Origin: Longimicrobiales bacterium
Lineage (GTDB): Bacteria; Gemmatimonadota; Gemmatimonadetes; Longimicrobiales; Gaopeijiaceae
DNA: 64,000 nucleotides
Assembly: GCA_965238005.1 (NCBI GenBank)
Contig: OZ250165.1
Coordinates: 3,616,001 to 3,680,000, forward strand
Direction: 5' to 3'
A program made the position numbers and the translations under genes. The notes beneath the pieces are model-generated. The model did not search any database. It saw only the letters and a program-made list of their open reading frames with translations, and was not told where the DNA came from. Positions 26,935 to 29,800 of this stretch are shown piece by piece. Within the stretch, counting starts at the first letter, position 1. Every line of letters begins with the position of its first letter.

Positions 26935-28077
26935 TCAGTGCACGGTGAACTTCTGTACACGCCGGCCCGTGGACGCTTCTCCCACGTAGAGGTTTCCCCG
27001 TGAGTCGACGCTCATGCCGTGGGGCCGCAGGAACTGGCCTACCTGTCGGCCACCCCGGCCGAACTCCCCCACCACCTCCAAGCCTGCGCGCTGGAGTATC
27101 CAAACCTTATGGTTCGTCCCATCTGCCAGATACAGCCACTTCTGCTCCGGATCGGGTGACAGCCCGACCACGAAGGCCGACCCGGAGGCGCGCGTGAGCG
27201 GAGCGATGATCCTTTCCGCCACGAACGTCCCGTCGTGTTCGAACACCTGGATGCGGTTCCCTCTTCGGTCTGCGACGTAGATCAGTCCGTCGCTCGATCC
27301 GATGACACCATGGACCGTCGAGAACGCGCGGGGGGGTGGTCCCGCCGGATCGCGGTCACCGAAGTCGTAGTCGTCGTCCGGGGGCTCCCCGTAGGCACCC
27401 CAGTGCCGAAGGTAGTTCCCGGTGTCGCCTTCGTAGACGATCACCCGGCGATTCCGGTAGCCGTCAGCGATGTACACCTCGTTCGTCTCCGGGTCCACCC
27501 AGATTCCCGCTGGTCCACCGAGGAGATTGGGGTCGTCGCTCCCCCCGTTCACGTCGTATTCACCGAGGGTCATCACCAGTTCACCATCGCGCGTGAACTT
27601 CATGACCCGGTGATGTCGGAAGGTGCCGATCCAGACGTAGTCGTTGTGATCGATGAAGAGCCCGTGAGGGTTCCGGGGGTACTCCGATACGTCCTGTGTG
27701 GCCGCGTCCCCCCATCCCTGAACCACGTTTCCTTCGGAGTCGAACTCGATCACGTGGGGTGCGGGCACGCAGCACGTCCCGAGAGGCGGATCTTGCACGG
27801 CCGACGCTTCCTCGGGCGTCAATGTCTCCGGTTGGTGTGTCACCCAGACGTGGTCGGACGCATCGACGAAGACCGACGTCACGGATCCCATGATCCACTT
27901 GTTGGGCATCTCCTTGGGCCAGGAGGGGTCGACCTCGAACCGTGGCGTGCCACCATCGGCTGCGGTGGCCGCGCCACCCGCATCTCCGGACCCCGGCTCA
28001 CACGCAACGAATACGATCGAAAACGTCACAAGCAACGCGAGCGTGAGGCTTAGACGGGATTCAACGACTCTCTTCAT
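26935..28077 (-). CDS. NHL-repeat beta-propeller lipoprotein
   Basis: Lipobox VFVAC; FEVDPSWP, YIADGY.NRRV, YVADR.GNRIQVF and GRRVQKF repeats. Confidence 0.88.
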   Translation of the reverse strand: MKRVVESRLSLTLALLVTFSIVFVACEPGSGDAGGAATAADGGTPRFEVDPSWPKEMPNKWIMGSVTSVFVDASDHVWVTHQPETLTPEEASAVQDPPLGTCCVPAPHVIEFDSEGNVVQGWGDAATQDVSEYPRNPHGLFIDHNDYVWIGTFRHHRVMKFTRDGELVMTLGEYDVNGGSDDPNLLGGPAGIWVDPETNEVYIADGYRNRRVIVYEGDTGNYLRHWGAYGEPPDDDYDFGDRDPAGPPPRAFSTVHGVIGSSDGLIYVADRRGNRIQVFEHDGTFVAERIIAPLTRASGSAFVVGLSPDPEQKWLYLADGTNHKVWILQRAGLEVVGEFGRGGRQVGQFLRPHGMSVDSRGNLYVGEASTGRRVQKFTVH

Positions 28078-28176
28078 GATTCCTCCAACGTTTCCGCGCC
28101 GTGGCGCGACATGAACGGGCGACTCGAGGCCAGACTGAGGGGTCGGCCTTCGAATCGGAGGGCTCAACCACCGGCC

Positions 28177-28968
28177 CTACGTTTGCGCGGCCTTTTCGGC
28201 CGTCATCAGAACCGCCTTTACGCCGTGGGCCTCCGCGGAGTTCTGCGTGGACTGCTTTCGGAACCGGAAGGTCGGGACAACAGCAGATTTCACGCGGCTG
28301 AACCCGGACTCTTCCAGGAGCCTGAACATCTCTCCTTCCAGGAGAGCACCTCCGATTCAGGCCGCCCAGAGCTTGGGGTCATTCACGATAGATTGAGGGA
28401 GCTGCTTGCCGCTGACGATGTCCGTGATCGAGATCCGCCCGCCGGGCTTCAGGACACGGAACATCTCCTCCATCACCCGCCGCTTCCGGAACGAGAGATT
28501 GATGACTCCGTTGGAGATGACGACGTTCACCGACTCGTCGGGGAGGGGGATGTCTTCCATCCTGCCTTCGTGGCACTCCATCTCGGAGCCGGTGGCCGTG
28601 GCGTGCGCCTGAGCCCTCAAGCACATGTATGGGTTGAGGTCGACGCCGATCACCTTCCCCGTAGGCCCCGCACTCCATGAAGCGATGATCGCGTCGAGCC
28701 CGGCTCCGCTCCCCAGGTCGAGAACCGTCTCGCCGGGCTGGACGTTGCTGCGGAGGTGGGGGTTGCCTACCCCGGCGAAGGAAGCGACGGCGCCGGGTGG
28801 GGCCCGATCGAGCCAGTCGGACTGATAGCCGAAGAGCTCTGCGGCCTGCCGCCCGTGGAAGAAGTGGAACTCACCTTCAGGGTGGTCCGCCACGTCCTGA
28901 TACATGCGGACAATCTCGTCCTTGAGGAACTCCTCGAGTGATTCCTGGGCTTCAACAGCGTCCGCCAT
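28177..28968 (-). CDS. Selenocysteine-containing ArsM-fold SAM methyltransferase (263 aa; Sec at 28357-28359)
   Basis: VLDLGSGAGLD SAM motif. In-frame TGA in LWAA-U-IGGAL matches the conserved ArsM Cys. The frame stays open 59 more codons to TAG, and a SECIS-like hairpin follows the UGA. Confidence 0.85.
28317..28353 (-). promoter_or_regulatory. Putative bacterial SECIS element
   Basis: After the UGA: AUCGGAGGUG-CUCUCCU-GGA-AGGAGAG. Perfect 7-bp stem, G-starting apical loop 17 nt after the UGA, lower GGAG/CUCC pairing. Confidence 0.75.
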
Positions 28969-29028
28969 ATGGTCTCTCCTGGTCGCACGGCCGTCTGGCC
29001 GCCGGTTCGTGGCTCACGCCACCCTACC

Positions 29029-29800
29029 CTACGACTCGGGGCCGTGCAAGGCAGGGGAGTGGTCACTGGCCACCAGATCGAGGACGCCATCGTCCAGAGC
29101 CTGCCACAACGCTTCTCGGTGTCGGGCCTCCCGGATGGGAGGTGCGCACTTGAAGTTGGTGGCCCCGTCGGGCACCTCCTCGGCCGCGAATGTGAGGTAG
29201 TGGGGACACGTCTCGGCGGTCACCGGGAGTCCGCGGCCGCGGGCCTCGGCGAGCACGTCGGCCGTCTCAGCCGCCGATACGTGGACCACGTGCACCGCCG
29301 CGCTCGTCTCCGCGGAGAGCCGTACGAGGGCGGCAACGGCCTGTGTCTCCGCACTTGTAGCCCAGCACCCCGGCGTCCCGGAGCGGCGCGAGCTGGTCCC
29401 GATTGGCTGGCACGACGCCGCCCCAGACCCCGTAGTCCACCCAGCAGCGCCCCTCAGCGGCAGCCGTCTTGGCCTTCAGCGCGGCTGGCCTGGTGGTGAC
29501 CGGGCTGCTGTTGAGCGGCATGTCCCCCAGGGTCGTGATGCCGCCTGCCGCCGCCGCTTTGGTAGCCGTTTCGAAGCCTTCCCAGTTGGCGCGTCCCGGG
29601 TCATTGACGTGAACGTGTGAGTCCACCAGGCCGGGCATGACCATGGCGTCGCCTGGGTCCAGGTGGGGCGCGTCCGGGGTCGGAGTGCTCGGGGGCTCGA
29701 CCGCCACGACGACCCCGCCGGAAACCACGACGGATCCCGGGCGGACCCCCTCGGGTGTGACCACCCGGGAGCTGGAGACGATCAGGTCGGGCGCTTTCAT
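29029..29800 (-). pseudogene. allB: Allantoinase remnant (internal deletion and 3' truncation)
   Basis: PGLVDSHVHVNDPG, WEGFETATKAAAAGG and GYKC, then a frame switch to VHVVHVS, ETCPHYL, FKCAPPIR and SDHSP, then a stop. Confidence 0.82.

Follow-up and report, generated by a model that had tools for sequence, protein, structure and literature searches.

Selenocysteine (Sec)-containing relatives of the arsenite methyltransferase ArsM have been described before, and it is against these that we set a gene found on the minus strand, at positions 28177..28968, of a 64,000-nucleotide stretch (the window) of contig OZ250165.1 from a Longimicrobiales bacterium of the Gemmatimonadota. Table 1 of PMC13188914 lists, among the experimentally verified prokaryotic selenoproteins, an 'arsenite methyltransferase' with a UxxG motif and one Sec (PRK11873/NF008823), which it credits to Fomenko et al. 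(2007, Science 315:387). The same enzyme appears in Table 1 of PMC9312934, and an ocean-metagenome survey of 2008 (Global Ocean Sampling, GOS) counted 8 Sec and 245 cysteine (Cys) sequences of the family (PMC2398784). Three larger architectures, NF041537 (ArsM/AhpD), NF041536 (ArsM/DUF2284) and NF047649 (a methyltransferase/UXPK-star double selenoprotein), are attributed in PMC13188914 to Haft and Tolstoy 2025. As to the chemistry of the ordinary enzymes, PMC6138428 states that all As(III) methyltransferases share four conserved cysteines, Cys44, Cys72, Cys174 and Cys224 in CmArsM. According to the same source, the first methylation, from As(III) to MAs(III), requires all four, MAs(III) is held by Cys174 and Cys224, and DMAs(III) is bound weakly, by Cys224 alone.

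Our analysis indicates, with a probability that we put at roughly 0.94, that an in-frame TGA within this gene is a Sec codon, and that one intact gene would therefore encode a selenoprotein of 263 residues, not 203. In the list of open reading frames (ORFs), the frame runs over 203 codons from 28968 to 28357 on the minus strand and ends at ...NDPKLWAA-TGA. The initial annotation of this DNA, made by a model from the letters alone, had proposed that the frame stays open beyond LWAA-TGA up to AQT-TAG. It does: when TGA is translated as U, 59 further codons follow (IGGALLEGEMFRLLEESGF...AEKAAQT) before the TAG, giving the 263 amino acids (aa) that had been predicted, and the coding sequence plus its stop occupies exactly the proposed span of 28177-28968. 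The segment past the UGA opens with IGGALLEGEMFRLLEESGFSRVK and has ...AEKAAQT as its C-terminal end; the predicted tryptic peptide across residue 204 is LWAA-U-IGGALLEGEMFR. There is only one TGA in the gene, and the protein has no extra domain. The parts of the gene are as follows.

28177..28968, minus strand: predicted selenoprotein gene for an ArsM-fold S-adenosylmethionine (SAM)-dependent methyltransferase, 263 codons plus stop (ORF list and read-through translation)
28975..28980, minus strand: Shine-Dalgarno-like AGGAGA, 6 nt upstream of the ATG (CCAGGAGAGACCAT-ATG), read from the sequence
28968-28966, minus strand: start codon ATG
28357..28359, minus strand: in-frame UGA, read as Sec204, the equivalent of CmArsM Cys224 (alignment and conservation)
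28180..28356, minus strand: coding segment past the UGA, residues 205-263
28179-28177, minus strand: stop codon TAG

The UGA codon is conserved throughout the orthologues of this gene. Scanning one genome per species yielded 242 relatives, of which the best 80 (76-97% identity) were retained; most of these carry the labels Gemmatimonadota, Longimicrobiales or Gemmatimonadales, and a few are bins with other labels. TGA stands at codon 204 in 80/80 of these loci. A separate tblastn search covered the genomes of 60 relatives together with the window's own genome. Nine other genomes gave a match at 65-97% identity, each with exactly one in-frame TGA, at the same column. A tenth, G050, has an incomplete copy in which the TGA is kept as well. 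A second clade, 40-44% identical, also has TGA at this column (DLWTG-U-IAGALLE, 6 loci), bringing the TGA-bearing loci among the relatives to 16 in two clades. Two further clades have Cys at the column, in LWAECIVGAT and in the canonical LWVGCVAGAL, which is the Cys/UGA pairing that the initial annotation had suggested looking for. In an alignment of 51 rows (36 with TGA, 15 with Cys), L200, W201, C/U204, G207 and A208 are invariant, and the column is that of a Cys in the solved ArsM chains, in agreement with the ArsM motif W..C(I/V).GAL given in the initial annotation. A quick maximum-likelihood tree resolves four well-supported clades, on which the Sec label needs 2 changes; the two Sec clades may nevertheless share one origin. 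Two unpublished genomes (G037, G056) supplied L041 and L047, that is, one Sec row and two Cys rows, to the relatives' alignments, folds, covariation and tree; these rows stand outside the counts of 80/80 and of nine orthologues, and no claim depends on them alone.

Some of the orthologous copies deserve separate mention. The copy in G050 (L040, G050:C6) lacks residues 138-185 and has a change of frame, with TGA and hairpin kept, and the orthologue L111 shows a further stop codon within its match; both look degraded. The orthologues L034 and L038 end with a TGA terminator as well, after ...AEKAKED and ...VKPGGA, respectively, so that one mRNA would use UGA both as Sec and as stop.

Conservation does not fade past the UGA. 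The 80 orthologues are on average 82.2% identical to the window protein downstream of the codon and 80.5% upstream of it, and at codons +12 to +33 the residues are conserved while synonymous positions vary freely. An AlphaFold2 model built on the 51-row alignment has a mean predicted local distance difference test score (pLDDT) of 93.8 and a predicted template modelling score (pTM) of 0.92. The modelled elements that follow the Sec position are a helix at 211-220, a strand at 224-230, a helix at 239-247 and a strand at 251-258, with pLDDT of 88-97. Since the model places the strands 224-230 and 251-258 in the core sheet, a product of 203 residues would be left without two core strands. The fold itself is that of ArsM, as the initial annotation held. 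The sequence scores 92.3 bits with Pfam Methyltransf_31, a class I methyltransferase domain. The top 13 Foldseek matches in the PDB are all As(III) SAM methyltransferases (ArsM/AS3MT), with query TM-scores of 0.60-0.73, and the best phmmer matches in the PDB, among CrArsM, CmArsM and human AS3MT, range from E = 2.7e-25 (5evj) to 2.5e-18.

Annotation pipelines do truncate this gene, as had been foreseen. Among its best 120 matches in a collection of 5.8 billion proteins, 119 cover only 77% of the query, are 203-218 aa long and end in ...LWA[AS]. The single full-length entry among them, P0009, has 271 aa and W at the UGA site. At least 22 of the 150 representatives listed from a library clustered at 50% identity end at query position 201-203 (a count made from the table), and every one of the nine fetched representatives that end at the UGA column terminates in [LA]W-x-x. 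In the databases, a widespread Gemmatimonadota gene thus stands as a fragment of 203 residues, often called 'arsenite methyltransferase'. Both selenoproteome counts and surveys of arsenic-cycling genes that use such annotation would be off, because the real protein is predicted to be longer, to contain selenium and to lack most of the arsenic-binding residues.

Immediately after the UGA comes a hairpin of the kind expected for a bacterial selenocysteine insertion sequence (SECIS).

28330..28346, minus strand: core SECIS-type hairpin, 7-bp stem CUCUCCU/AGGAGAG with apical GGA (folds, published criteria, pair counts)
28324..28353, minus strand: tentative candidate for an extended SECIS with a lower stem around the core hairpin (minimum free energy (MFE) fold of this sequence only)

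A hairpin of 7 bp, with a GGA loop that begins 17 nt past the UGA, had been noticed at the outset, and it is found at 28346-28330. Its stem (CUCUCCU-GGA-AGGAGAG) follows a 10-nt spacer after the UGA; in an alternative reading it has a 6-bp stem and a UGGAA loop, 16 nt from the UGA. Section 5 and the Fig. 2 legend of PMC13188914 describe bacterial SECIS elements by a loop of 3-9 nt with a G in its first two positions, a stem of 4-16 bp, a distance of 16-37 nt from the UGA and an MFE of -7.5 kcal/mol or below. The hairpin lies within all four limits, with its loop of GGA or UGGAA, its stem of 7 or 6 bp, its spacing of 17 or 16 nt and an energy of -9.8 kcal/mol for the 27-nt hairpin segment. In the candidate lower stem, the pairs are G7-C36, G8-U35, A9-U34, G11-U32 and U12-A31, with G13 bulged; this lower stem is not conserved in the folds of the orthologues.

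The fold alone is only modestly unusual, as the MFE of a 76-nt segment (-34.4 kcal/mol, z = -2.17) is equalled by 3/200 shuffles. What raises the hairpin above chance is its conservation, namely the TGA present in 80/80 orthologues and the nearly frozen synonymous sites under the stem. In 81 orthologous sequences codon +4 is GCT in 81/81, codon +5 CTC in 80/81 and codon +8 GGA in 80/81; among sequences with the majority residue, codon +6 is CTG in 64/65 and codon +9 GAG in 77/80. Synonymous entropy is accordingly about 0 at codons +4, +5, +6, +8 and +9, and it reaches 1.9-2.0 bits at codons +2 and +3 (Gly) and at codons +12 and +13 (Arg/Leu). Across 88 distinct sequences the stem positions 14-20/24-30 are nearly always paired, and two of the pairs show compensatory changes. 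Pair 20-24 is U-A in 59 sequences, C-G in 18, a U-G wobble in 11 and unpaired in 0, its changes joining Leu-to-Pro with a synonymous GAA-to-GAG. Pair 18-26 is CG in 82, GC in 5 and UG in 1, the switch from C-G to G-C in the second clade joining a synonymous Leu change with Gly-to-Ala. When the partner strand is slid, pairing falls from 87.9% to 51-66%. All 16 TGA loci of the relatives fold into the hairpin, with an average energy of -11.7 kcal/mol; the average for the 18 homologues with Cys is -5.2 kcal/mol, and their folds are unrelated, although two of them reach -12. The proposal of a SECIS-type element immediately 3' of the UGA is thus borne out by a hairpin that has the published dimensions and is conserved with covariation.

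A genome that reads UGA as Sec is expected to encode the decoding machinery, and selA, selB, selC and selD had been predicted on that ground. The host genome is a single contig of 4.84 Mb, 95.85% complete and 1.73% contaminated. Profile searches of it recover selA (555.9 bits, with a cut-off of 267.9), selB (327.6 bits, or 354.9 when its C-terminal piece is added) and selD (370.9 bits), together with a tRNA-Sec (71.5 bits with Rfam; called by ARAGORN as tRNA-SeC, anticodon tca), all of them above the curated cut-offs. The two observations that were to speak against a Sec codon, a complete genome devoid of Sec machinery and a lack of other homologues with UGA at the site, are both contradicted, as the machinery is present and other homologues do have the UGA. 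The selD gene (L012, G000:C1:578521-579441) itself carries one in-frame TGA, making selenophosphate synthetase a selenoprotein in this genome. The same genome also has a second ArsM-like selenoprotein of 459 residues (L025:880-2256; G000:C1, about 1137371-1138747), in which DUF2652 (91.2 bits) is fused to the methyltransferase domain. Its TGA falls at the same UxxG column and is followed by a related hairpin, and no NCBIfam selenoprotein model gives the protein a score that reaches its cut-off.

Other explanations of the TGA have to be weighed against this evidence. A single base separates TGA from TGC or TGT, some homologues do have Cys at the column and degraded copies exist elsewhere, such as those with the internal deletion in G050 and the extra stop in L111, so that one could regard the codon as a recent TGC-to-TGA nonsense mutation and the gene as a pseudogene. 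A recent mutation, however, would not be shared by all 80 orthologues and by all nine among the relatives, down to 65% identity, nor would 59 codons past it be under purifying selection, and no Cys-coding orthologue is found among the best 120 database matches. Conservation appears, for practical purposes, to have refuted this explanation already, and we give it next to no weight. One may also take the TGA as a true stop, as gene callers do in 119/120 matches, and assign the downstream conservation to an RNA element or to a small ORF of 50 aa at 28329..28177, which begins with ATG in the same frame; TGA is, after all, a genuine stop in this lineage, where it ends the same gene in L034 and L038. 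Yet the truncated product would lack the two modelled core-sheet strands, and conservation runs unbroken from the first codon past the TGA, ahead of the internal ATG. Moreover, the downstream pattern is a coding one, with third positions varying and residues kept, and the Cys homologues are single full-length proteins across the TGA point. A product of 203 residues is therefore very improbable in our estimate, if slightly less so than a pseudogene.

The least improbable of the alternatives, to which we still assign only a small chance, is that translation continues past the UGA with a standard amino acid in that place (Trp, Cys or Gly), whether through near-cognate decoding or because the code is reassigned. 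The residue inserted is not identifiable from sequence alone, and P0009 does have W at the site, presumably through a caller using a table with TGA as Trp on a contig of 989 nt. Set against this, the genome has a complete Sec system, in which selD depends on Sec decoding for its own synthesis. At the prescribed distance there is a SECIS-type hairpin whose synonymous sites are frozen, and the partner residue in the homologues is Cys, the classic Sec/Cys pair. The code, furthermore, is not reassigned, because TGA terminates genes in the lineage.

Several points weigh against reading the TGA as a Sec codon. The evidence for Sec204 is at the level of sequence and model, not of protein. The hairpin is short and its z-score alone is modest. 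The covariation score, which 0/500 shuffles reach, comes from related sequences, for which shuffle statistics overstate independence and are not probabilities. An Rfam scan of 28100-29000 with E up to 10 gave three chance-level matches and no SECIS family, as is to be expected, because bacterial SECIS elements are poorly modelled in Rfam. When metatranscriptomic contigs from four runs were compared with 28050-29050, three runs gave pieces of 90-99% likeness (28350-28557, 28747-28966, 28069-28240 and 28202-28377), on both sides of the UGA, and the fourth gave none. No contig spans the UGA with 31 nt or more on both sides, and RNA libraries may contain DNA; these contigs are no evidence either way for read-through of the UGA.

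The active site is where the protein departs from ArsM, and the following residues are informative.

28768..28770, minus strand: Val67, at the position of CmArsM Cys72, in FAGVGNP where the canonical motif is GCGNP (PDB alignment; Val in 80/80 orthologues)
28621..28623, minus strand: Cys116, invariant and specific to the clade (80/80 orthologues), Leu or Val in canonical ArsM
28573..28575, minus strand: Cys132, invariant and specific to the clade (80/80 orthologues), in strand beta3 (modelled strand 130-134), motif ECHEG
28507..28509, minus strand: Gly154, at the position of CmArsM Cys174, in SNGVINL where the canonical motif is SNCVINL (ungapped PDB alignment)

The ungapped part of the PDB alignment pairs residues 150-228 of the query with 170-248 of the CmArsM chain, and in it Sec204 falls on Cys224 and Gly154 on Cys174. 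Residues 1-115 contain no Cys at all, and so no equivalent of Cys44. Of the four cysteines that characterise As(III) methyltransferases, then, the Cys224 position alone is kept, as Sec, and the same holds for the 80 orthologues, in which no column outside 116, 132 and 204 has more than 5 Cys. The column of Cys116 is Leu in the other clades and aligns with V123 of the CmArsM chain (as counted on the PDB alignment). We suspect that Cys116 and Cys132 line the SAM adenine pocket, given their topological places at the start of the helix after beta2 and in strand beta3.

The ArsM label of the initial annotation thus holds for the fold and not necessarily for the substrate, three of the four As(III) methyltransferase cysteines being absent. 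Arsenite may not be the substrate, because the equivalents of Cys44, Cys72 and Cys174 are missing. The score with NF008823, the best NCBIfam model, also speaks against an assignment to the arsenite enzymes, since at 204.4 bits it falls short of the 263-bit cut-off, and so does the neighbourhood, which has no ars genes.

With this in mind, one may sketch how the gene would be expressed and what its product might do. During translation, the hairpin 3' of UGA-204 would act as a bacterial SECIS and recruit SelB carrying Sec-tRNA(Sec), so that selenocysteine would be inserted at the UGA and translation would not end there. The product would be a SAM-dependent methyltransferase of the ArsM/AS3MT fold, with a selenol at the metalloid-binding Cys224 site, next to the methyl group of SAM. 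The substrate, bound by the selenolate and then methylated, could be a soft electrophile: an arsenical, or else a species of another metalloid or of a chalcogen. The three-thiol capture of As(III) and the disulfide cascade cannot operate as they do in ArsM, because the equivalents of Cys44, Cys72 and Cys174 are absent.

The Sec/Cys pair marks residue 204 as the likely reactive centre, and this residue could therefore serve as a handle for finding the real substrate of the Sec-type branch. One may speculate, though we hold it to be rather doubtful, that this branch, recognised by AGxGNP, SNG and a lone U in LWxxUxxGAL, is a distinct enzyme and not an arsenite methyltransferase, its single selenol capturing a substrate for which one chalcogen ligand is enough. 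Such an enzyme could act on dimethylarsenite, with volatile trimethylarsine as the product, on a cation resembling methylmercury, or on a species of selenium or tellurium. A database representative of 608 aa, P0122, has three parts, labelled here from a reading of the motifs: an AhpD/CMD-like N-terminus, an ArsM domain of the canonical Cys type (GCGNP, SNCVINL, SCCLGGAL) and, last, a domain of the Sec type, whose end, ...DAWAT, falls exactly at the Sec column. This fusion hints, from its sequence, that Sec-type and canonical enzymes could act in one pathway.

The neighbourhood of the gene offers little further guidance. Downstream lies a gene for an NHL-repeat protein; upstream lies an allantoinase remnant and, beyond it, a deaminase-family gene on the other strand. 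The NHL-repeat neighbour is shared with the genome of the same genus only, and the other 8 orthologous loci have no conserved partner within about 1.5 kb. No ars, mer or selenium genes lie nearby. Since the surroundings vary and lack such genes, the context gives no clue to function.

29029-29800, minus strand: allantoinase remnant, directly upstream of the methyltransferase gene

This remnant matches positions 1-145 of the 441 of TIGR03178 and then 230-311 in another frame, with 146-229 and 312-441 missing. The same-genus genome G001 has no allantoinase sequence in the 1.5 kb upstream of its orthologue, which indicates a rearrangement breakpoint at this place. The window's own genome also carries a canonical-looking ArsM/AS3MT-type gene (L027/L028, G000:C1:3681148-3681816), about 37 kb from the Sec gene and about 1.1 kb past the end of the window. 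Its three C-terminal positions all hold Cys (YGCGDP, SNCVLNL, LWSGCVSGAL), and its middle part contains an insertion.

How, then, does this protein compare with the systems already described? CmArsM, CrArsM and human AS3MT (PDB 4fr0, 4fsd, 6cx6, 5evj, 8xt7) are its best matches in sequence and fold. It shares with them the SAM-binding motifs VLDLGSGAG, an acidic residue ending beta2, and LKPGGR, and its Sec204 has as its aligned counterpart Cys224, which is one of two residues that bind arsenic. Unlike these enzymes, it has no equivalents of Cys44, Cys72 (Val67) and Cys174 (Gly154), and with 263 aa compared with their 321-387 aa it lacks the C-terminal domain. The hairpin resembles the bacterial SECIS consensus of Zhang and Gladyshev, as given in PMC13188914, in its small loop starting with G and then G, its 6-7-bp upper stem, its distance of 16-17 nt from the UGA and its energy below -7.5 kcal/mol, whereas its stem is short and its spacing is among the shortest allowed. 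With NF041537, NF041536 and NF047649 the protein has in common a homologous methyltransferase domain and a U at the same UxxG column, going by the table of PMC13188914. It differs from them in that it has one Sec, lacks the AhpD and DUF2284 domains and ends in ...AEKAAQT-TAG without a C-terminal UXPK, and its scores are far below their cut-offs (200/510, 174.8/575 and 173.8/460 bits, respectively).

The closest described system is the Sec arsenite methyltransferase family. A literature search on selenoproteins in Gemmatimonadota returned nothing on this gene by title or abstract, and the comparison of the subfamily with published members is by description only. The protein shares with that family the fold, the position of the Sec, the motif U204-I-G-G207 (UxxG) with one Sec, the pairing of its Sec with Cys in ordinary ArsM homologues and a SECIS that follows the UGA directly. 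From its sequence it appears to belong to the ArsM fold and to this catalogued Sec-ArsM family, while its active site argues against the 'arsenite' in the name. Selenium-containing enzymes of this kind are already known, and the gene is a mis-annotated member of them and no new kind of system; what sets it apart is its score below the NF008823 cut-off and its place in a Gemmatimonadota-centred clade with an invariant Cys116 and Cys132 of its own.

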